Positions 1 through 37,189 of a DNA stretch of 64,000 nt are shown here, piece after piece. The stretch lies in assembly GCA_044892505.1 (NCBI GenBank), contig CM097884.1, positions 5,146,001-5,210,000 on the forward strand. Direction: 5' to 3'. Numbering within the stretch: the stretch's first letter is position 1; every line of letters starts with the position of its first letter. The position numbers and the translations under genes are program-made. The notes under the pieces were generated by a model. It saw only the letters and a program-made list of their open reading frames with translations, searched no databases and had not been told where the DNA came from. This DNA is from Schmidtea nova (lineage: Eukaryota).

Positions 1-1152
1 GAAATTAATTTCAACAATTTTCCGCAAAATCAAATTAATATTTTTACATAATATTTCATAAAACTTTAAATAATTTATTTTTAATCAAAACTTTTCTTTT
101 GAATTAAAGTTTATTCTAATTTGATTTAATTTGTTACATTTTCGATCAAAATTGTTTTCTTTTATATATTTTCAAATTTTTAAGATAAAATCGCAACCAT
201 GTTTTCTGAAAACATGCTAAATTTCCACAACTGAGGTTTTATGTCATGAATGCGATCTCCATGTGCATATTCAATGTGTTTTTTGTCTATTCTAGCTTTT
301 CAGACGTGTTTCTTTTAACCACTTTGGTTTTACTTGATGTTTTGGTTAAAGGACTTTAAATTCGAATCTTGCGCGCTCTCTACTTGTTAATGCGATTTTG
401 TCTACTTTAATTCTTAGGCGTGTTTTCATTTAACTACTTTGGTTTTAATTGATGTTTTGGTTAAATTAGAATCTTGCGCACTCTCTACTGGCTCTATTAT
501 CGTTTTATTTAAACAATATTTAGTTTTTGCCCAACAAACAAATGGATAAGTATTCGTAATCAGTGAGCGTCGAAAATTCGAAACTATGATTGACTGAATA
601 TCTCCGATAGAAGGTTTAATGCCCATTTATCCCTTCTTCAACAATTTATCCATAAACATTCAATAAGATTTTAATCGGTAATTATCCATCTACTAATATC
701 CATCAGTCTTGTTATGCATTCAATGGTTGAGAAAACAGTTCATTAATACAGAAAATTTTATTGAAAATACACGAAAATTTATCGAAAATGAAGACGAATC
801 ACAACGAACAAAAATGACAAACAAAATCACAATATCACAAGAAGGTTACGTCTATGGTTTCTATCGATTCCTTGCGCAATTGTTCCAACAAGTGCGCTTT
901 TTGGCGGCGTTTTCGCTGAGCCCTCACACCTTTGCTGAGCTTCCAGCGCTTGGCCTTTTCTGGTTGAGGAGATGCTAATATTTCCTCCTCGACCCTCACT
1001 GGGAACAATTCCTGTGTGGGCATAGATATTTTTGGCAGGACAGCAGAAATTATACCACTTTCTGACTGCAGCTTTGCTATCATAGTTTCCTGCTCTTGAA
1101 TGGTCATCCGGCAGGCACGCAATCTCATAACATATTCCGTTGTTTGCTGCAG

Positions 1153-4145
1153 CAATATTGAATAACTGATGGTTCTTATTAATTATCCTAAACTGTGGGA
1201 AAGTATATATCTTATTATTTAAATAACAATCAAGATACAACTGGTGTGTTAGTCCAGTATCTTTCATGCTAATCCCCTTAGTCCTCATACACGCGTCGTC
1301 TCCCATCAAACTATAACATTTCGATCTAAGAAACACCCACTCTTCATACAAAAGCCCTTTATTCTAGTCTTTGAATTTACCAATGACAGAATCAAGGCTT
1401 TTACTGTATAAAGGATAATGTGGGTCATAATTAGAAGTGTCCAGCAAGCAATCATTTATCATAGCCGGTGAAAGACTGTTAAGACTACAGTTTTTTTACC
1501 TCAAGAAAAAAGGAATCAGTATCTCCAGCAACGATGTTAATTTCACAGTTGAAGTCATCACGATAGTTTTGTAACTCTTCATACAAAAACTGGTATATTT
1601 GAAGTTTGGATAAATCCAGTACAGTTTGACCGATGTAGCTGGGTCTATCCAAACATACTGATTCCTTTCACAGCAAAACAGAAATAACGTCATTGTCAAT
1701 TTTAATGGTATTTTTAAATGTAGGTTTAGATGCGTATGTTTAAAAGTTTTTGTGTGGAATTACACAAACGCAAATTTAATCGTTTTACAGATTTTCAACA
1801 GTCTCGCCGTAAAGACTGTTGCTAAATAATTTATAAAAGTTTTTATCTAATTTATTTGTCGGCGCTGCTCGTAACACCGTATTTGTATTGATATAATTTT
1901 CAAAATTTTATCTTGTGTGAATTTTATTGCCCTATGCACATATGTTATATTTACACCTATTTTAATAAATAGTTGCAGAAGCCTGCAACGAAAAACGTAG
2001 TTCCTCTTTGGATAATGCGTAATCTCAACCTTTGAACCGGGTGCACACATCTTTTCAGCGGCAACGGGAAGATCATCCAGATTGTCGTGAATTGACGTCA
2101 GTATCTCTAAATCCATTTCTATGGTATAACCACAATGAAGTGCATCTAAATTTACCGTTGTGCACTCAACAATTATTTCATCAAATAAGTGGCCACCTGT
2201 GACCCATTCAAAATTTGCACAAGGCAAGGATTGACTTAAAGTCCAACCATATAAGTTATTTATGTCAATATATAGGAATGCCGTATCCGGGCTAGTTTTG
2301 ACATAATGTTTATTGAAAAACGTTAGCCCGCGACGAATACCGCCCTTGAAAAAGTTATAAATCTCCATATCGGTGAGGAGCTCAATTGGAGAGTTTAAAG
2401 TTAATAATGCCGAATTCCACGACATGCCGGGAATTCCTAAAAGATTTAATGGCTCAAGCCTATTATGTTTAATGGACTTTACCCGAAATTGCTGAAAATA
2501 ATCAGCCAAAAGAAAGACATCGAGCTTTAAATAAACCATCATGTAATTAGAAAGTGAATTACATAATGTTTCAAATTCATTGTGCTGCTGCGTATTCTAC
2601 TGGTGTAACATGTTTCCAGATAGGAGGTAATGATAAAGTCGATCTTAAAACTTCCAATGAAGTAGCTGCATCATAAGGAGAGATACTCTTGGCTGTTCTT
2701 ATTGTGTCGCGAAATTCTGATTGAGTCAATGGTAAAGAAGTCAAAGTTTTGACCGCATTACTTAAAGACTCGCTCACAAATTGATACGAGTGGATAAACT
2801 TAGCTGTTAATGTGTCAATATAAGCAAAAAGACTTAAAACCTTTTCGCTAGTTTACGGAATACAACTTATATTCCAAGTATTATATTTGGAAAGACCGTA
2901 TTTTAAATCAGGGTGTAGATCATACCCCTTTTAATTATGAAAGATGACAAGAAGGGTATGTCTAATCTGTCTGGATTTATTGCAAGAAGAAAATGCAGCT
3001 CCAAGAAATATACCGGAAAAATGGTCGTGATCGCAAACAGGGTTATTTAATAATTTTTTGCAGAAGTAACAAGTTGTGCTGTTGTCAAAAGATAATTGTT
3101 GGGTGGCTGTAATTACCATTTTCTTTTGATAATTTTTAAAAAAATATGGCGTCACGATATATTTGCTTATGGATTCAATTTCATTAAGAAATCGATCGAC
3201 ACAATCTAAACCGAAGAAAGATTTATATATTTAAACTCCAATAAAATTATTAATATGAAGGAGACCGGTGAAATAGGTAAATGTTTCTAAAAGTACCTTG
3301 TGTCTTTAGGTAAGGCAATGTGTATAAGGTGGTACCCAACTGATTTTTTTACAAAGATCCCTATGTCTATTAAAAGCCTCATCATTCCTAAAACCGTTTA
3401 AACATCGAGAACACTACTGACTACAAATCTTAACTGGTGTAATTGAGCTTTTTCGACAATTTAGAAATCTATTTAGGTCTGTAATGGCAAGATAATGATA
3501 AAAAGTTTTATTTTCTAAAAGTAGTAAATTTATAGTTATTCCTCCAACTATCTTACTACGATAAATAATATCTAAAGGGGTGTTTCAATACTACATCATC
3601 ATTACCAACAGAAATATCTATCAATGCCTTTTCATCATATGTAAAAATATTGATACTATAGCCAGTGTTTTGTCACTCAAATTTACTTATATTAGCCAGT
3701 TTCATGGGCATGTCATTTGGGTCATAATTTAATTGTGTAATATCATAAGAAGTAGGACGATTTCTATATTGTCTGTCTATGGTGTCATATTTTATAATAG
3801 ATAAAAAACTATAAAGAAAACAAAAGTCGTCATTATTAACTACATTTACAAGAGAACTTTAATTTTTTATAGATCTTGAGGTTTCTATAAAATTACTGCC
3901 ACTCAACCTACTTATTTCGCAAAAATTTAGTCAGAACAAAGCTTATATATTCAATTTTGAAGATAGTCCAATTGCTCCCTTTCTCATTTACTTTAACAAT
4001 TTTTTCATTTAAATTAGCAATACTTTCATCAATGAAGGTATCACTCCAAACTCTGGCAGAATTCGAGATGACGGAAGATTGTAATTCATCATCCTTCTCA
4101 AATTCTACCTTCAGACAGAATTGAATTTTAACTGATTTTAATTTA

Positions 4146-4275: not shown

Positions 4276-4945
4276 TTAAATTATAACATGTGTGTCGTTC
4301 AAGCCAGAATTAACTTCGACTACCCTATGTTCAATTTGAAAATTATTATTATTATTATTATTATTATTGTTTGAACCATTAAAGACACATGATTTGAAAA
4401 ACATTTTATTCCTATCAAACAATTTGTCCTTCAAAACAGCATCAATTCTCTTTACAAAGTATTCAAACCAAATAGATTCCATTGCCGAATAAGCAACCAA
4501 TCGGCCTCCAAATGTTTCATTTTTAGCAAATAAGTGAGCAACTCGAGTTTGTTATCAATAAATTGTTGTTTGTAATGAACATTACGTAAAAGAATAGAAA
4601 AATTCTCTCTGTGATTTGTTTGGCTATTGATTTGAAACTCAGAAAACCAGCGCGCTTCAGGGATTTGGATATCGTTATTGAGCTTGAATATTAAGCACTG
4701 CTCTGAATACAAACTCCCATGCGATAAGAGGAGTTCGACAATATCCTGCTCAGCGATCGGAAAACTAGCTAAAGAAAAGGTTTGAGGTCCAAATTGCTGT
4801 GGAATATAAAATTTAGATGATATAATTTGATATGTTGCATAAATGTCATAATATTTTATTGGAAATAGAACAAATCGCTTCTCGTTTGATATCAATAATG
4901 GCTCATTTCTGTCTAATATTTCAGCTCGTCGCTCTTTCGCAAAAT
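4276..4945 (-). pseudogene. Highly diverged ribonucleotide reductase small subunit (R2/RRM2-like), intronless, one frameshift
   Basis: NEPLLISNEKRFVLFPIKYYDIY resembles R2 EPLL.ENPRRFVIFPIEYHDIW. IQIPEARWFSEFQ resembles VQITEARCFYGFQ. After a frameshift near 4530-4560, KNETFGGRLVAYSAMESIWF resembles EATYGERVVAFAAVEGIFF. The C-terminal half is not alignable. Confidence 0.75.
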
Positions 4946-4949
4946 ATTA

Positions 4950-26357: not shown

Positions 26358-26789
26358 ATGTATCATGCAAAACGTTTGAACCATTTTGATAAGAATTTAG
26401 ATAAAGAGGACAAAATTCTTTGTCAATTTCTTTTGATAGAAATAAGAAACAATAATTACAGTTTCTTGTCAATATTTGAAGAACTCAAGCTTAAATACAA
26501 TGATCAAGATTCATTTTATCATTTATTGAATACTTTACATTTTCTCAATATAAATTTCCATTTCGTTGAACTGTGTTCTAACAATATTCCTATCAATTCC
26601 GATTATAATGATGAAAGAAAAAAGTTCATTGTCAAGCCATACAAAACTTGTACCGATAAAGAAATTGATTATTTATTAAAAAACATTTTCAAATTGAAAT
26701 ATGCATCATATTTAACATTACGAAAACTTTATCACATATTTGATTTTATTTCCAAAGAAAGGAATGATTTAATGAGAATTGATTTATGA
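26358..26789 (+). CDS. Orphan 143-aa ORF of unknown function
   Basis: ATG-initiated, stop-free 432 bp in extremely AT-rich DNA; no motif recognised. Confidence 0.4.
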   Translation: MYHAKRLNHFDKNLDKEDKILCQFLLIEIRNNNYSFLSIFEELKLKYNDQDSFYHLLNTLHFLNINFHFVELCSNNIPINSDYNDERKKFIVKPYKTCTDKEIDYLLKNIFKLKYASYLTLRKLYHIFDFISKERNDLMRIDL

Positions 26790-28019
26790 ATTTTGCAGTT
26801 GATAAGGAGTCGAATTCACGGCAAATGGATGTTCACGAGGAGTCGATGGCGAATACAATTTTCGAACGTTTCGCGAAGGCGCACTATGCCCGAAACGCTT
26901 CACCGGATTTACAATTTTGGGAGCCCTAGTCCAACAAATATTTGAGGCCCCATTTTGAAAAATAAAAAATATTTCTAAGTTTTTAAATTCAAAAATATAT
27001 TACAACTTTAATATAATTCAAGATTTTATTTCAATTTGTAAAAAATATTGTTTACAATCTACATAATCTTTTTTCTGTATTTTTCATCAACAAAATCGTT
27101 AACCAATGAATCAAAATCAATCGACTTCATTTTGTCAGCATTACTTGATAATAATGCAAAATTAGTTAACGTTTTTTGTGACAAAGTTGATCGCAAATCA
27201 TTTTTCGTTAATTTTAATTTTGAAAATGACCTCTCTCCAGAGCAGTTGGATATCATGAAACATGAAAATTCTCAGAACTATCTCGGTATTAGGAAATGCA
27301 GCCTCCATTTGTTTTTCTTTAATAAATTTGTTCAAATCCAAATGGGACAATTGAGGAGCTTGAGTATTGAAATGATCTTTCAAATAAAGATGAAGATGTT
27401 CGATTTCTGCGTATAAATTTTCGTCAATGTCTTCTGCGTAGTCTTCCCCCAGACGGTCAACACAAATCTTCAGTTTATCTTTATTGATTTTTGTGTCTTT
27501 TAAAAATCCAAATTTGTCATTCAATTCCATGTAGCATTGGGCTCTTTCTTTCAAATTTGTAGTGAGATCATTGATGATTTTTAAGAAAACATTTGTCTTA
27601 AACTCTTCACGTGGACTCAACTGGGTTTCTTCTGAGCGATTTTCACCTGAAAGCTCTTTTCTTTTACGTCGTCTCTTTTCTAAATAACCAGTGTCTGATA
27701 ACAGCAATTTAGCATCTTGTTCTATTAAATCGAAATTTTCAGTTATTCCAATAAGATAATCACCAAGAGATGAATAAAGTTCAGAACATGTATCCAGAGT
27801 AATAGTTACACTTTGCAATGATTTGGAAACTGCATTCATTCGTTGAAAAATTTGATACCACATTACTATTTGAGTAGGTAGAAGTGTGGAGCCGGAAACA
27901 AAGACATTATGACTCATCGATGACTCATAACAAAGAACCCCCCCCCCGGGGGGTTGGTAGGAATTTTTTTTATGACTCATCGCGATGACTCATCGATGAC
28001 GTCATCGATGACTCATTTC

Positions 28020-29220
28020 AAATTTGAATTTCCAAAGGTCAAACAAGGTCAAACCTTCAAACAAGGGTATCATTCGAAAGGTCTTGGAAAGGTCTATCCA
28101 ATGGTCATACCCTTGAAGGTTTATGGAGGGTCCTTGACCTTCGAAGGGTCAAAAACCTTCAACCTTTTTTAAACCTTATAATATATATATCAAACAAAAG
28201 GTAATTGAGAGGTAAGTAAGATGGTCATACCCTTGAAGGTCTATGGTGGGTGCTCAACCTTCAAAGGGTGCAAAACCTTCAACCTTTTTCAAACCTTGTG
28301 TGTAATACATCAAACAAAAGGTAATTGAGATGTGCACACAATGGTCATACCCTCGATGGTCTATGGTGGGTGCTCAACCTTCAAGGGGTCAAAAACCTTC
28401 AAACCTTATAAGTTATATATCAAACAAAAGGTAATTGTGAGATGTGTGTGTGTTACAATTTACAAAGGTAATTGAGAGGTAGGTATGCTGGTCATACCCT
28501 TGAAGGTGTATGGAGGGTCCTTGACCTTCGAAGGGTCAAAAACCTTCAACCTTTTTCAAACCTTATAATATATATATCAAACAAAAGGTAATTGAGAGGT
28601 AAGTAAGATGGTCATACCCTTGAAGGTCTATGGTGTGTGCTCAACCTTCAAGGGGTTAAAAACCTTCAAACCTTATAAGTTATATATCAAACAAAAGGTA
28701 ATTGAAATGTGCACACAATGGTCATACCTTCAAAGGTCATACCCTTGAAGGGTCCAAGGTTCAAATTTTTAAAACTATATAATATGTATATCAAACAAAA
28801 GGTAATTGAAGGGTGCACACAATGGTCATACCCTTAAGGGTCCAAGGTTCAAATTTTTAAAACTATATAATATGTATATCAAACAAAAGGTAATTGTGAG
28901 ATGTGTGTGCGTGTGTGTTACAATTTGCCAGAAGAGTGTGAGTGTGTGTGTTACAAATCCTTTTTTTCAAACCTTATAATATGTATATCAAACAAAAGGT
29001 AATTGAAATGTGCACACAATGGTCATACCTTCAAAGGTCATACCCTTGAAGGGTCCAAGGTTCAAATTTTTAAAACTATATAATATGTATATCAAACAAA
29101 AGGTAATTGTCAGATGAGTATGTGTGTGTTACAATTTGTCTGGCGAGTATGTTTGTGTGTGTGTGTTACAAATCCTTATTCAAACCTTATAATATACATA
29201 TCATTCGAAAGGTAATTATG
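28020..29220. repeat. Subterminal tandem array of ~100-130 bp units
   Basis: About 9-10 recurrences of TATCAAACAAAAGGTAATTG alternating with GGTCATACCCTTGAAGG and AAAACCTTCAA. Confidence 0.85.
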
Positions 29221-29388
29221 GTGTGTGTGCGTTATAATTTTTTCTATTTCCTACCTGAATTACAACAAAGACATTGCAATTCATGTGCAACGAAACAAAG
29301 ACATTGCAATCCATGTGCAACGAAACAAAGACTAATAAAACTTGTAATAATAATTTTTGCACACGTATCTTAGTGTTTAATAAGGATC

Positions 29389-29570
29389 ACAGTACACATT
29401 GAACGCGCGTGGAACGCGCGTTCTTCTCCTCTTGTTGTTTAAGACAAATAACAGTACGCATTGAACGCGCGTGGAACGCGCGTTCTTCTCCTCTTGTTGT
29501 TTAAGACAAATAACAGTACGCATTGAACGCGCGTGGAACGCACGTTCTTCTTCTCTTGTTGTTTAAGACA

Positions 29571-29572
<2 letters not shown>
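29389..29572. repeat. Three 62-bp tandem units, each with a CpG-rich hairpin
   Basis: Units start at 29389, 29451 and 29513; each contains GAACGCGCGT-GGA-ACGCGCGTTC (third copy has one mismatch). Confidence 0.9.
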
Positions 29573-29603
<31 letters not shown>

Positions 29604-29652
29604 TTATAAAAAATATAATAATAATAGAAACTTATAAAAAATATAATAATAA

Positions 29653-29698
<46 letters not shown>

Positions 29699-29936
29699 TT
29701 ATAAAAAATATAATAANNNNNNNNNNNNNNNNNNNNNNNNNNNNNNNNNNNNNNNNNNNNNNNNNNNNNNNNNNNNNNNNNNNNNNNNNNNNNNNNNNNN
29801 NNNNNNNNNNNNNNNNNNNNNNNNNNNNNNNNNNNNNNNNNNNNNNNNNNNNNNNNNNNNNNNNNNNNNNNNNNNNNNNNNNNNNNNNNNNNNNNNNNNN
29901 NNNNNNNNNNNNAATAATAATAGAAAATTATAAAAA

Positions 29937-29988
<52 letters not shown>

Positions 29989-30294
29989 TTATAAAAAATA
30001 TAATAANNNNNNNNNNNNNNNNNNNNNNNNNNNNNNNNNNNNNNNNNNNNNNNNNNNNNNNNNNNNNNNNNNNNNNNNNNNNNNNNNNNNNNNNNNNNNN
30101 NNNNNNNNNNNNNNNNNNNNNNNNNNNNNNNNNNNNNNNNNNNNNNNNNNNNNNNNAAACTTTTAAAAATATATAAATAGCATGCGAAAGATATTTGAGA
30201 TGTATGTATGTGTATATTTTCAAACCTTCAAGATGTCAAAATAAAATAATTAAACTACCACAACGTAATATATATTTATTTTCCTACCCATTTT

Positions 30295-30477
30295 GACATT
30301 GCAAAACAGATGCAAGTTAACAAAGACATTGCAAAACAGATGCAAGTTAACAAAGACATTGCAAAACAGATGCAAGTTAACAAAGACATTGCAAAACAGA
30401 TGCAAGTTAACAAAGACATTGCAAAACAGATGCAAGTTAACAAAGACATTGCAGTTGCAAGCCAAGTTAACAAAGAC
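30295..30477. repeat. 30-bp tandem array (5 perfect copies + 1 variant)
   Basis: Unit GACATTGCAAAACAGATGCAAGTTAACAAA. Confidence 0.95.
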
Positions 30478-30573
30478 AAGATGTCCAAAAAGACTAATTA
30501 TTAATCACAAAGTGCATTCTCTTAGCCAATGATAAAAATAAATTAAATGAAAATACATATATTTTGTATGACA

Positions 30574-31089
30574 TTATATGTATATCACATGATATTCATC
30601 AATATTAATACCACAAGACTCACACTTATCAATATTTTTTAAACATTTTGAACAAATAATGACATGTCCACAAGGTAAATATAAAATGCCAACTCTATTG
30701 ATATTACATATTGAACATGTGAGAAATCTTTGTTTGGTTTCTTCCAATTTCTTGGTTACATTTACCTCTAAAATATCCACATTCAGCATGAAAGTTCGAA
30801 TAATAGTACGATATTTTCCAAGTCGAAATTCCATACATGACCAGAAAATGGTATTCAAATTGAATTCAGTAGAATCGATATCATTAAGAATCATAATAAA
30901 ACTGGATAATTTCATCATGGATTTATCATATCCGAATGATTCTGTTAAACCAATTATTAATTTATTATTGAAGGATTTGAATAATTTTGAAAGAATGTCG
31001 ATATCGCATTTCTCAATCGATGTTAAAAGGTCATCAAGTATTAAAAAGGATTGGATCCAATTGTCCAAAGTAATGAAATTATCTGTAAC
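30574..31089 (-). CDS. RING-HC (IAP-type C-terminal RING) E3 ligase-like gene, exon 2
   Basis: Open frame from acceptor AAACTAG|GTT to stop. The C-terminus CSICNINRVGILYLPCGHVIICSKCLKNIDKCESCGINIDEYHVIYI is a C3HC4 RING with an IAP-like hydrophobic tail. No BIR domain. Confidence 0.8.
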   Translation of the reverse strand, partial: VTDNFITLDNWIQSFLILDDLLTSIEKCDIDILSKLFKSFNNKLIIGLTESFGYDKSMMKLSSFIMILNDIDSTEFNLNTIFWSCMEFRLGKYRTIIRTFMLNVDILEVNVTKKLEETKQRFLTCSICNINRVGILYLPCGHVIICSKCLKNIDKCESCGINIDEYHVIYI

Positions 31090-31133
31090 CTAGTTTAAAA
31101 TAATTAATTTAAATATATATTTTTAAAACTAAC

Positions 31134-31160
31134 TTTATTTGTTTCTTTATTCATTTTCAT
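31134..31160 (-). CDS. RING gene, putative exon 1 (MKMNKETNK)
   Basis: ATG..AAA|GTTAGT donor, 44-bp AT-rich intron (31090-31133), phase 0, giving a ~180-aa protein. Confidence 0.55.
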
Positions 31161-31329
31161 CAATCAATACTATTTACAAGTTGTATTTATATTGCAAAAA
31201 TCAACCAATTTAATAACCAAACATTTTATTGACCAACCAATGATTGAAAGTTTTGCTAAACTGTTACATTGAAATGATGATAAGTGACATTGAAAATTAG
31301 GTAACAGTATATTTATTATTAGAAATATG

Positions 31330-34300
31330 TTCAAGTAATGAGCTTTTGCACATCAAAACCATCACAGAATAGGTTCTGCTACTAGTGTTCTGCTCGCAAT
31401 GTTCTGCTACTAAATGTTCTCTCACTATGACAAATACATGAAAAGTTATTATACTATTGAGATAATCACACATATTATTCTTAAATTATAGTACAAATAT
31501 ATCAAAAATATATGAAATATACATTACATACTTGAAATATTATCACAAAGTATCATTACATACATGAAATAACATTATACTATTGTGCAAATTACATACA
31601 AAATATCATCATACTGCAATTACATCGAAAATCACCAAAATTATACACAAAATATGAAAAGTACATAGAAATTCGTCACATATAAAAACATTACATATAT
31701 GAACTATTATCAAAAATACATACAAAATACATATAAATTTATCACACACGTACAAAATATCACCATACTATAGTGAATAAATATACATACAAAATGTCTG
31801 AAATACAAACATACATAAAATATCATCTTACTATAGTTTGATAACATAGAAATACATGAAATATCCTCAAAATACAGAAACTTTCACAGATATATAGATT
31901 CATCATACAAAATATCATATATAAGAAATATCATTACAGATTATCACATGCATGAAATATTATTATAGTGCAAATTACATAGAAAATAGCAAAGATACAT
32001 GAAATATCATCACAAAATACACATAAAATTATAGGAAATTTTCACACTAGAAATAATAATAATAATAATCATAAAAAGAATATTATCACGCCAGTACAAA
32101 ATTATACAGAATATTATCACATTGAACAAAAGCTTATCATATATATGAAATATTATTATACTTTTATGTAAACTACAAAGAAAAATACAAACATATACAC
32201 AAAATATTATCACATTATAGTGTCTAAACATTGCAAATACTCACAAAATATGTGAAATATGACCATAAAATATCAAAGAATCACAAAGAAAATATATAAA
32301 AGATTATCATATTTTTGTTTGATAACATAAAAATACATTGAAATACATAAAAAATTATTAAAATGCATACAAGTATCATTACATACATGAAATATCATTA
32401 CACAAAATGTTATAACGCATGAAATATTACCATACAAAATATCAAAAGTACATAGAAATAAATCCTATACACAAAGGATATCATTACATATATGAAATAT
32501 CATCATACTTTAATACAAATACAGACAAAATATTATCATGCTATATTCCAAATACACTTAATATTAAAATAGAAATATCATGCATACATACATACATATG
32601 AAAAGTGGTCATGTTATAGTCAGTCAAATGCATGAATTATTATCATACTAGTGTAAAATACATATATAATATCAAAAAATGTATCATACATACAAAGGAT
32701 ATCATCACAAAGTATCAATACATACATTAAATATCATCACACTATAGTACAATTAAATAGATAATCATCAAAATATACAGAAATTAATCAATTTCACAAC
32801 AATACTCATTAAAGAAATATCTACATACTTGTGCAATTACATAATAAATATACAGAAATACCAAAATTATATGAAATATCATCACAAATATCAACACATA
32901 TGAAATATTATCATACATACACAAAGAATATAATAACATATTTAGAAAATTATCACATACAAAATATCAAAAGTCCATTACACATATAATTTAACAGTAA
33001 TAAATGTTTAATTAATGAGCTTTTGCACATAAAAACCATCACAGAATAGGTTCTGCTACTAGGGTTCTGTTCGCAATGTTCAGCTAGCAATGTTCTGCTA
33101 CTGAATAAATTTGATGAAAATGTAACAATGTATTATGAATGGAAATAAATCTCAATCATTACAGTAAATTCTACTTTAAAATGAGGTTGAATGCATGAAA
33201 TGTCATTATTCTATAGTGATAATACATGAAATACTCTTTAGATACATGACTTTAGATGCATCAAATATTATCTTACTATAGTTTGATAACATAGAAAAAA
33301 TAAATAGAAATCATCAAAATTATACAAAATATTAAAAAAAAAATATTAAATTAAATATCATCATAAAGTACATAGAAAATCATCAAAAATACACAGAAAT
33401 TCATCAAATTCACAACAATAATCATTAAAGAAATATCTACGTACTAGTGTCATTACATAAAAAATATCTGAAAATTTAAGATATATCATCACAAATATCA
33501 ACACACATATGAAATATTATCATATACAAAGGATATAATCACATACAAAGGTTCATTACACATACAAAATATAATATATCAACATACCTTAATGTAACAG
33601 TAATAATTGTTCAAGTAATGAGCTGTTGCACATAAAAACCATCACAAAAGATGTTCTGATACTAGGGTTCTGCTACTAAATGTTCTGCTAGTCATGTTCT
33701 GCTACTGTAAAAAAATTAATGAAAGTTATATGAATGGAAATAAAACTATCATCATACTATAGTGCAAATACATTAAAATATTCACAAAATGATATTAGAT
33801 GCATCAAATATTATCTAACTATAGTTTGATAACATATTAAAAATAGATCATTTGAAATGTCATCACAAAATACATAGATATTCATGTACAAAATATCACA
33901 AAATATCACAAATACAATAGAAACACATATCAAATATATATGAAATGTCATCACAAAGTATCATTAAATATATGAAATATCATAATTCTACAGCGTAATT
34001 ACAAGAAAATCTCCACAAAATATCACAAATACAATAAAATTCATCAAAAATACATAGCAATTCATCAAACAACAAATATTCACATAATAATTCTCATTAA
34101 AAGTGTATCAGTAAATGTAATATGCTTTCACAATTTTTCTGTTACATTGATCGAAGCTCATATGCTAATGATTGTTATTTTAGTATATGTGTGAATAATA
34201 ATAAGCTTTTGCACATAAAAACCATCACAAAAGATGTTCTGTTACTAAAGGTTCTATCCGAAATGTTTTGCTAGTGGATAAATTTAATGAAAATTATACG

Positions 34301-34500
34301 AGTGACAATAAATTGTTAGAGTAAATTCTACATTAAAATGAAGAAAACCGATAGAAAATATTAATTGGTGAAAATATTAGAACAAATGATGCTGAATGAA
34401 TTGTAATAAATGTTCGAGTAATAAGCTTTGGCAGATAAAAACCATCACAGAATAGGTTCTGATTCTAAAGGTTCTGTTCGAAATGTTCTGCTAGCATGAA
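31330..34500. repeat. Low-complexity ATATCATCACAAAATAC-rich region punctuated by five copies of a conserved ~85-95 bp motif
   Basis: Motif TAATRAGCTTTTGCACATAAAAACCATCACA(G/A)AA..GTTCTG(CTACTAG) at ~31333, 33011, 33611, 34196 and 34414. Confidence 0.8.
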
Positions 34501-34834
34501 ATTAATATCATAAAATTATAGTCTGTGACAAAATAATATGTTGAAATAGTTATTGGAAATATATAGTCTGTGACAAAATAATGATTGGAAATATATAGTT
34601 TGTGACAAAATAATAATTATTGGAAATACGCGCAAATAAATAAATTAAAATAATATCAAACTGTACATCATAGTTTTAATTTCTTGTAAAAAACAATGCG
34701 GGTTATCAAAATTCATGTTCTAAATAAAATTTTACAATTTAAAATACCACAACGTAAAATATTTATAAAGTACCACAACGTAATAAAAGTTGGTATATAT
34801 CTATTACAATTTTATAAGTAATTCATTTTAAACC

Positions 34835-35059
34835 ATGAATTCTGAACACTATAATGATAATCAAGTTAAAGAACCTATTTCAGTAAATGGAGTTTCGATG
34901 CCTGAAAGTCCTAAACTTTCAAGTAAACGTACAAGTAAATTTATATTTATTTTTATAAAGTTATTTTTATAATATTTATTAGAAAAATATAAAGAAATTA
35001 ACAGTCCAATTGAAGAATTACAGAACCTAATAAATTCTTACTTGGACTCTTTGTTATGA
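34835..35059 (+). pseudogene. Spliced Polinton gene truncated by the right TIR
   Basis: Exon 34835-34934 (MNSEHYNDNQVKEPISVNGVSMPESPKLSSKRT), 48-bp GT-AG intron, then an in-frame exon (KYKEINSPIEELQNLINSYLDS) that runs into the TIR at 35048 and stops. Confidence 0.55.
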
Positions 35060-37189
35060 GTCATCGATGAGTCATAATGTCTTTGTTTCCGGCTCCACAC
35101 TTCTACCTACTTATTTGTAAGGCAAATTCAAAAGGTTCCACTTTCGATAGTAAATTGCCAGCCTCAGCTCTTGCTTTCGTTTCAAAACTTTCACTCTCAT
35201 TGATTGTGAGCAATGCTTCCATCAATTTGTCGTAGTTCTGCTGAATGGATTTGACCGAGTCAGCATGAGCGCTCCATCGAGTATTCGATAGTGATTTCAA
35301 TGAACTACTTGCCAATTGTCCCAAAATACTCCATCGCTTTGTAGAAACAGAGAAAAAATTGTAGAGTTCATGAACAATACCGAGAAACTTAATTCCTTCG
35401 ATGCAACAGTCCACAGCAGCCTCTCCCACTAAGTTAAGAGAATGACCTGAACATGGCAAGAATTTCGCCAGCTCATTGAGTTTCAAAATTTTAGTTTTCA
35501 TGCCTATATATTTTCCAGTCATATTTCTCGCGTTATTATAAGACTGGCTTCTGCAGTTGCTGATTTCCAAGTTCAATCTTTCGTCTAAAAAGCCAACGGT
35601 TACATTTGCTAAATTTTCCCTTATGTGATTATCGATGTGGATGTAGTTGACAAATCTTTCGATTGGCTCATTAGAAGTTTGATCAATGTACCTCAAGATC
35701 ACACATAGTTGATCTTTGTGGCTCACATCAGGTGTCGAGTCTACTGATAATCCATAATACTTTGATTTTAGAACATCATCGCTGATTGATTGCAAAACTT
35801 TTCTCGCTCAACTCCTCACATGTAGTCTTTGAGAGGTAATTTGTTTTTCCAGAACCGTTGTCACCATAATTTTTTATGGGTTCGGCCAAAAAAGGATCAA
35901 ACTGTGAAATCAACTCGAGCAGACCAATAAAATTCCAGTTGCTCTCAGCCCCAAATTTTTCATTTGAACCTCTAAAAGCTAAGTTTCTTTCAATCAATGT
36001 TCAAATTACAGCCGTGACTCTTCTTAGAACCTCTCTCCAGTAGTTTTTATCTTTGCGAATTTCGTTTAGAAGTTGATCCTTTAAAACGTTGTTATTTTTT
36101 TCTGTGAAAGTATGCTAAAGAAGCTTTTCTGTGGTCCGATGAGTTCTCATGGCCTTGAATTGATGCCACAGAATTTTTCCAATCTTTAAATCCCGTTGAA
36201 GCTAAGGCAAATTTTGAGGCTTCAAAAAGTTTGCAGACAAAACAGAATACACAACCCAACGCTGGTGAATATATGAGCCATTCTCTATTAAACGTTTCAC
36301 CGTTCACTTTTTTCCCCACAAACAAGCTTTTTGAGCAATATCGATCGCGATCTTGATACGTCATTATAGAGGATTTAAAGTCATTATCTGCATTTTGACA
36401 TGTTGACGGACCGCTCTCTATCCAAAATTGTATTTCCTCAGCTGAAAGGTTATCCCAAAGTCCTGGATCACTTTTTCTATTCAATGGCAAATCTTTTTGA
36501 ATATCCGTCTCTTCATCGAGTTCTGATTGTTCGTTTAAAGTTTGAGTCACCTTGATTGAGTCCTCTAAAAGACCCGATAAACTAGCTTCTTCACTTATGC
36601 CAAAGTTTGTAAAATTAGCTGAAGTTGATGAATTAGCATGAGATTCGGTTTCAACAGACAACTATCGAGATTTCGATGTTTCTTAATGTTTTTTCTATTT
36701 CTGCTTTTTTCTTTCTTTTTGCAGCTCCACTTTCATAAGTTCTTAAGGAGCTTCTTCCCATTTCTGGTTGAAATTTTTTTTTCTCGGAGAAATTAACTTA
36801 ATATATTTTAATTTTAAGATGAAAATTTTATCAATGAAAATATTAAAATCACTATGAAATAATTATATTGCAAATCGATTGATATTAAAAATATTTTTCA
36901 TACTACTCAAAATTATTTTGGGGCCCCTTATTTTGCGGGGCCCCTAGGCCATGGCCTAGTCGGCCTGCCTGTAAATCCGGCCCTGTCTGTCGTGTATTCT
37001 ATAGAAAAGTAAAATAATCTTTTTTAGTTGTTTTAATAATAAATAGAAGTTGATATATTTATTTCTAATTACTTTTTTTAAATAGAAAAAGAATTAGTTT
37101 GTTCATTTCACTTTACTATCTACAAGATAGAAGATTTTTAAAACTTCATTTGATCCCAATAGTGTTCCTTGGGTAAAGAAATTGGCTTA

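Follow-up and report, generated by a model that had tools for sequence, protein, structure and literature searches.

A spliced, BIR-less IAP-type RING gene on a foldback Polinton satellite of Schmidtea nova, with signs of selection in the copies that multiply

Non-autonomous mobile elements are expected to shed coding function. The window analysed here (the whole 64,000-nucleotide stretch of Schmidtea nova DNA: assembly GCA_044892505.1, contig CM097884.1, positions 5,146,001 to 5,210,000, forward strand) holds a RING gene first noted at 30574-31160, inside a small Polinton-like element, and the question raised by this locus is why such an element should have kept it. All coordinates below are window positions unless stated otherwise. 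The element was delimited as follows:

27867-27872, plus strand: left target-site duplication TATTTG, with an identical 6-mer at 35112-35117.
27873-35111, no strand assigned: one-armed, RING-bearing non-autonomous Polinton of 7,239 bp with AG..CT ends.
27873-27936, plus strand: left terminal inverted repeat, 64 bp, perfect, starting with AGTAG (Polinton end type A).
27964-30478, plus strand: subterminal minisatellite arrays (120/104/62/30-bp units, AAT runs), partly common to autonomous Polintons.
31308-31427, no strand assigned: conserved upstream motif (family D13), repeated along the arm and also present in autonomous Polintons; a candidate regulatory site.
34835-35047, plus strand: beginning of the central second gene, which is cut short here (an exon of 100 nt, a phase-1 intron of 48 nt and 24 exon-2 codons).
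35048-35111, minus strand: right terminal inverted repeat, 64 bp.
35112-35117, plus strand: right target-site duplication TATTTG, matching the left copy.

These boundaries (27873-35111, 64-bp perfect terminal repeat, TATTTG duplication) bore out the mini-Polinton that the initial annotation had proposed. Its view of the carrier as a non-autonomous Polinton also held: the ends are of Polinton type and the core genes are missing, ORFs for polymerase B, integrase, ATPase and capsid being absent from the window element and from two-armed copies of the family without nested insertions. That the RING gene is the sole intact gene was correct for the window copy but not for the family, where a second spliced gene is whole in other copies. 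The window element sits inside a hAT transposase gene, with hAT pieces (DUF4371) on both sides. Elsewhere in the window, 827-3230 and 4452-4946 hold decayed pieces of a Polinton-type polymerase B together with part of a ribonucleotide reductase small subunit (PF00268, E 1e-5, short of the cut-off), and a 143-codon ORF, complete from ATG to stop and with no Pfam match, lies outside the element at 26358-26789 (plus strand).

The RING gene itself is read from the minus strand:

31134-31154, minus strand: exon 1, seven codons from a conserved ATG; this N-terminus is homologous and contiguous in an older Polinton family described below.
31090-31133, minus strand: intron, 44 nt, phase 0, GT-AG, with a variable (TA)n tract.
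30574-31089, minus strand: exon 2, 171 codons and stop, encoding a helical N-terminal domain, a long pre-RING helix, a C3HC4 RING and an aromatic tail.

The intron borders are AAA/GTTAGT ... CTAG/GTT, and exon 1 ends at 31134. Of 89 gene copies, 88 keep the ATG at 31154, whereas 52 have ACG at 31160, so the likely product is the 178-aa protein that starts at 31154; a common in-frame 12-nt duplication yields a 182-aa variant. The two-exon model first suggested (44-nt GT-AG intron, about 180 aa) was otherwise sound, its start being corrected from 31160 to 31154. The donor GT was retained in 75 and the acceptor AG in 85 of 89 copies, and most GT losses fell within a subfamily that is already dead. 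Among 86 copies, every exon-1 indel (55/55) was a multiple of three and most intron indels (48/58) were not. In the older sister family, exon 1 and exon 2 are contiguous and in frame in most copies, and two copies have an intron at the same place. The predicted splicing is backed beyond chance by comparison of genomic copies, since exon-1 indels keep the frame, intron indels do not, and the older family displays the junction. Alternative introns of 47, 122 and 135 nt were ruled out by donor quality, conservation and the old-family junction. A contig joint at the intron (four contig runs from one study, kind unknown, none with an exact 44-nt skip) corresponded to a genomic intronless old copy and is therefore uninformative on splicing today.

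For the encoded protein, Pfam zf-C3HC4_3 was matched with E 2.1e-9 (37.5 bits against a cut-off of 27 bits), and a BIR domain was absent in the same Pfam scan. All eight zinc ligands are present (C125, C128, C140, H142, C146, C149, C156 and C159, exon-2 numbering), and the closest solved structures by sequence are the RINGs of cIAP2 and XIAP. An AlphaFold2 model built from a 26-row alignment reached pLDDT 90 (single-sequence prediction only 38) and has six helices, the last of which continues into the RING. In this predicted model, the RING and pre-RING helix superposed on cIAP1 (Z 9.1, rmsd 1.4, 62 residues), and the same portion also superposed on cIAP2, XIAP and IDOL. The penultimate residue of the C-terminal tail is aromatic in 21 of the 24 RING ends listed, and is Tyr in the element. 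Pfam, sequence and fold comparison thus agree with the proposal of a BIR-less IAP-type RING that has all eight ligands and an IAP-like tail.

The N-terminal domain gave a weak profile-profile match to the IAP UBA (probability 19%, E 0.0013, 47 columns; reversed control E 0.2) and its best structural matches, helical bundles at Z ≤6, were not clear ones; a new fold is not implied. The protein is predicted to resemble the C-terminal half of an IAP in its working, but it does not belong to the IAP family.

Two positions bear on catalysis. An arginine at the linchpin position is not universal among RING E3 ligases, XIAP being active without it, and the proline of the last CxxC pair bears on canonical RING activity. 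In the element RING, the linchpin position after the last Cys is Gly and not Arg, a position that varies across the family including the host paralogues, and the last CxxC pair lacks its customary Pro throughout the family. Canonical ligase activity may be weak because of these two features. According to the accessible part of PMC6349121, cIAP1 needs its linchpin Arg for activity, and also its tail Phe, which acts in trans in the dimer.

The RING gene is repeated in at least 3,621 copies (exact matches to an internal 24-nt word in the 1.25-Gb genome), and the upstream motif has 3,327 exact matches. Seventy-eight of the first 100 motif matches form 39 outward-pointing pairs with a median gap of 7.7 kb. 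The usual element, about 15-17 kb long, is built of two 7-8-kb arms in inverted orientation that flank a centre of 0.3-1 kb; each arm has its own RING gene, and the arms are 95-99.7% alike in their main blocks. The one-armed form of the window copy was also found at L264. Twelve two-armed elements were checked, which are young copies because they were picked from the best protein matches: ten had a direct 6-bp duplication (one within a microsatellite), in another an end could not be located, and the pair L056/L058 had inverted flanks. An assembly artefact was ruled out by the direct (not inverted) 6-bp duplications, the unique centres and the arm differences of 0.3-5%. Changes private to an element occurred 39 times in both arms and 25 times in one arm, and 22 of 35 arm pairs were identical over the scored part, which argues that arms are copied from one another. 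At roughly 8 kb for each of at least 3,300-3,600 arms, the RING satellite is estimated at 27-30 Mb, roughly 2% of the 1.25-Gb genome: one host-type signalling gene has been multiplied some 350-fold over its host family.

Between the arms, in either orientation, lies the central second gene (e.g. L035:9634-9963), which is spliced and encodes a coiled-coil-like protein of about 92 aa. There were 2,350 candidates for this gene, with stops in three of the 150 best exon-2 matches; the ESM Atlas gave no family match. Further rearrangements were seen. One arm of a two-armed RING element (L051-L055) contains nested Polintons of full size, of which one has the element's own end type. In L043/L044, L049/L050, L056-L058 and L067, segments inverted internally, an inverted duplication of larger extent and a one-armed form that has been rearranged reflect more repeat recombination.

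A second foldback family was encountered, with two 7-kb arms 99.9% alike, each carrying a long open, outward-pointing polymerase-B ORF, and with ends AGTAGGGAGAT. Its three members (G000:C2:401.69-401.71 Mb, C3:118.28-118.30 Mb and C1:287.92-287.94 Mb; L082/83, L086/87, L090/91) have a 6-bp duplication in two cases, and their centre resembles the subterminal minisatellite of the RING element. The foldback shape is general in this genome, since polymerase-only foldbacks are also present.

Two Polinton end types have 7,149 (23-nt end) and 3,452 exact genome matches, numbers that exceed the need of the RING arms. All seven elements of 17.5-19.3 kb that were sampled with these ends have the Polinton core genes as well as 6-bp duplications (exact in six); their polymerase family was called by PF03175, and further ORFs are presumably ATPase, integrase, capsid and TBP-like genes, from motif reading. 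The RING gene was absent from all seven when searched with a profile of the RING family. What the satellite has in common with the full-size Polintons amounts to 2.3 of 7.2 kb, made up of the ends, subterminal repeats and a short recurring motif. We infer that the satellite is mobilised in trans by the full-size Polintons.

Selection on the RING gene was assessed in 90 of the first 100 motif matches, from the first 31 Mb of C1 (55 elements). These copies were selected on an exact non-coding match, so that ORF state played no part. Scoring excluded the truncated copy altogether and, by masking, the 3' ends in three copies along with 10 nt around indels; changes were counted as distinct alleles against the window copy (allele counts, without a tree). 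By ORF state, 46 copies were intact, 39 broken, four missing a ligand and one truncated; seven of the eight ligands were scored by script and the eighth was unchanged in the intact copies by listing.

Private changes comprised 32 synonymous, 101 missense and 11 stop changes (omega about 0.92). Changes common to at least two elements numbered 29/27/3 in the same order (omega 0.36, p 8e-5), and those common to at least three 20/12/1 (omega 0.23, p 3e-5); private and shared changes differed by Fisher's test (p 3e-5). Divergence at third codon positions (0.031) was about that of flanking non-coding DNA (0.026-0.037), against 0.009 at first and 0.013 at second positions. Since omega is about 0.92 for private and 0.23-0.36 for shared changes, insertions appear to decay neutrally while the multiplying lineages are constrained, which points to selection for the protein in the copies that multiply. 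The constraint is incomplete, as the omega of shared changes is not near zero. Retention of the gene by selection, which the initial annotation had supposed, is supported by the same contrast. As to its concern that other copies might be disrupted at neutral rates, inserted copies do decay (39/90 broken), as expected if insertions are dead on arrival, but the multiplying lineages are constrained.

The idea that the gene serves its own carrier element fared less well. A dead subfamily, with an early stop, a lost zinc ligand and mostly a broken donor, makes up 8 of the 55 sampled elements; because it has spread, the RING gene is not needed in cis. Together these patterns point to a RING product that is useful in trans and dispensable in cis.

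Relatives of the protein were sought in several databases. A word-based protein search yielded no match at E 0.001 among its 37 candidates. Eight matches at E ≤1e-10 that reach the N-terminal domain, all unnamed or hypothetical, came from a HMMER scan of 1.84 billion representatives; the ESM Atlas returned just RING clusters, under 0.9, and IMG/VR matches (18 loci) cover the RING part only. With one of the HMMER matches as query, ten divergent BIR-less host paralogues (173-186 aa, 35-41% identical) were found in the genome, mostly in two clusters on C2 (34.51-34.62 Mb and 81.15-82.15 Mb) and also at C1:571.7 Mb (L271-L278, L288, L293). They adjoin ordinary host genes and do not lie between Polinton ends (20 kb around eight loci), and no BIR-like exon is present within about 10 kb of these eight loci. 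Four of the ten have a candidate short phase-0 intron and the other six start at their own ATG; in two, the acceptor falls at the same codon and phase as in the element gene, counted from the conserved KSF motif. Among the six own-ATG paralogues, Lys replaces the Gly of PCGH in four, and Asp replaces the His ligand in one.

An older Polinton family accounts for 22 of 40 scored matches, at about 74% nucleotide identity to the element gene (L308-L337, e.g. G000:C1:6848050); its members are 78-85% identical to L307. Nine of the ten copies read have stops and the tenth is truncated. The RING gene lies beside the left end, with TBP-like, ATPase, integrase or capsid remains downstream in three copies. 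In most copies an in-frame deletion has removed the intron but spared the acceptor triplet, and two copies keep the intron; a gain of the intron within the satellite was dropped as an explanation, since these two old-family copies carry it.

In quick trees, the element and the old family join (SH-aLRT 97) within a group that includes the host paralogues (84-90). Intronless homologues on metagenomic Polinton-like contigs branch apart, although a single clade of all Polinton-borne RINGs was not rejected (p-AU 0.22). The initial annotation had pointed to the RING ligases of large DNA viruses for comparison; the closest relatives are the host multigene family and the older Polinton family, not the IAPs of large DNA viruses. 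Recent capture of a BIR-bearing IAP was ruled out, since the closest known sequences have no BIR and do not exceed 41% identity; no donor closer than that was found. A gene of the host family was likely captured as DNA with its intron and later moved from a full-size Polinton to the satellite. The reverse direction, domestication of an element gene by the host, is less likely; the direction from host to element rests mainly on the intron, because the single Polinton-RING clade is not rejected.

In three Polinton-like metagenome contigs (L240, L242, L244) the packaging ATPase is immediately preceded by a distant homologue without an intron (26-29%), and two others (L243, L246) carry a homologue in a different, TRAF-like gene context. 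The genome also contains a multi-copy 399-aa BIR-BIR-UBA-RING ORF next to a TRAF/MATH-like ORF, with flanks 96% alike (L295-L306; 1,295 BIR candidates, 150 scored), which is probably the IAP of a Burro-type retrotransposon.

The reading that we favour, with a probability of about 0.55, is that a host-captured, two-exon BIR-less RING gene on a Polinton satellite acts in trans as a dimeric ubiquitin ligase permissive for Polinton copying. The polymerase and integrase of same-ended full-size Polintons would copy and insert the satellite, and template switching during protein-primed strand-displacement copying would create the foldback, one arm being duplicated with its RING gene. Dimerisation of the RING would follow the cIAP pattern, through the pre-RING helix and the tail aromatic, and the choice of substrate would fall to the six-helix N-terminal domain; at a guess, the substrate is most probably a host factor that regulates cell death or element silencing. 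The dimeric E3 from satellite copies would act in trans to favour the Polinton DNA replicating in that cell. With the product shared within the cell, intact source copies would be favoured and broken copies could ride free.

The same RING could instead be an MDMX-like decoy that is itself hardly active as a ligase and that pairs with a host IAP, a paralogue or a Burro-type IAP to inhibit, stabilise or destroy it. The linchpin Gly, the absent Pro, the preserved tail aromatic and the lack of a BIR would all suit a decoy. A possible partner is at hand in the 399-aa ORF, which fits the Burro1 B-IAP as described in the available portions of PMC13465017 and PMC6431247. The linchpin residue, however, varies across the whole family, host paralogues included. 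XIAP, moreover, is active without Arg at that place, and we regard the decoy as unlikely.

That the gene is a passenger, once useful to the older full-size Polinton and neutral in the satellite, seems rather improbable, though the dead subfamily spreads, private changes are neutral, present autonomous Polintons manage without the gene and its older carriers are all decayed. The synonymous excess would then be left over, or result from few intact sources. However, the constrained changes separate current satellite subfamilies merely 2.5% apart and must have arisen within the satellite, all 55 exon-1 indels keep the frame, and copies other than those of the dead subfamily retain the start, the splice sites and the ligands.

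The trans-acting ligase could be carried one step further, to a division of labour in which autonomous Polintons lost the host-derived ligase and the foldback satellite supplies it as a public good, with cheaters; the ligase would act on the cell-death machinery, possibly on a rival retrotransposon's IAP in the same stem cells. This extension is speculative and we hold it to be improbable as a whole. Least probable by far is a benefit to the host, in which the amplified gene would be kept intact because it serves, say, stem-cell survival, a role reported for Burro1: the planarian precedent (available portion of PMC13465017), the host-type gene with its intron and the 46/90 intact copies speak for it, but selection at the level of the host cannot reach a single copy out of thousands, private changes evolve neutrally, and only the lineages that multiplied show constraint.

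A coding sequence that is constrained in multiplying lineages yet dispensable in cis would make a shared product and its cheaters measurable among mobile elements. It would also make the effects of Polinton accessory genes on the host cell, and the mode of Polinton replication, testable in a tractable animal: mirror arms of 7-8 kb, found also in polymerase-only foldbacks, are the footprint expected of template switching.

Compared with the RINGs of cIAP1/2, XIAP, BIRC7 and IDOL (PDB 6hpr, 3eb5, 4ic2, 4auq, 2yhn), the element protein is alike in C3HC4 spacing, pre-RING helix and aromatic tail (Z 8-9), but has no BIR, CARD, FERM or linchpin Arg, and carries a six-helix N-terminal domain with a weak UBA-like signal. 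With Polintons/Mavericks, as far as the accessible text of PMC8097293 describes them, the satellite shares AG..CT ends, a 6-bp duplication, a total of about 16 kb and accessory genes near the ends, but lacks polymerase, integrase and capsid and has its cargo gene doubled inside the arms. The terminal repeats of vertebrate Mavericks measure 46-1,447 bp in the same accessible text (Barreat and Katzourakis, 2021), against arms of 7-8 kb here. Maverick expansion has been described in Dugesia genomes (accessible part of 10.64898/2025.12.11.693146).

The nematode Maverick cargo genes wasp and krma are intron-bearing, probably host-derived and placed between the left end and the core module (Widen et al., 10.1101/2022.07.12.499685, accessible sections), and the older RING family is laid out alike; here, in contrast, the cargo is a RING protein and now rides on a non-autonomous foldback. 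The planarian Burro1 B-IAP is likewise an IAP-type RING gene amplified to high copy by a mobile element, but Burro1 is an LTR retrotransposon whose protein has BIR domains and is reported to be anti-apoptotic (PMC13465017 and PMC6431247, in their available portions), whereas the present gene is BIR-less, spliced and borne by a DNA satellite. Adintoviruses show that Polinton-type viruses also carry IAP-like accessory genes (IAP/Bcl2); a BIR-less spliced form or a satellite is not described in the portion of PMC8502044 compared, and its supplements may show such a gene. No report of a giant-foldback or RING-bearing non-autonomous Polinton was found in the literature covered, which includes part of PMC5499653 and lies outside Repbase and most subscription papers. 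Intron-bearing Maverick cargo and element-borne IAP genes are known already; what may be new, and we put this forward tentatively, is a cargo ligase gene with measured constraint on a foldback Polinton satellite.
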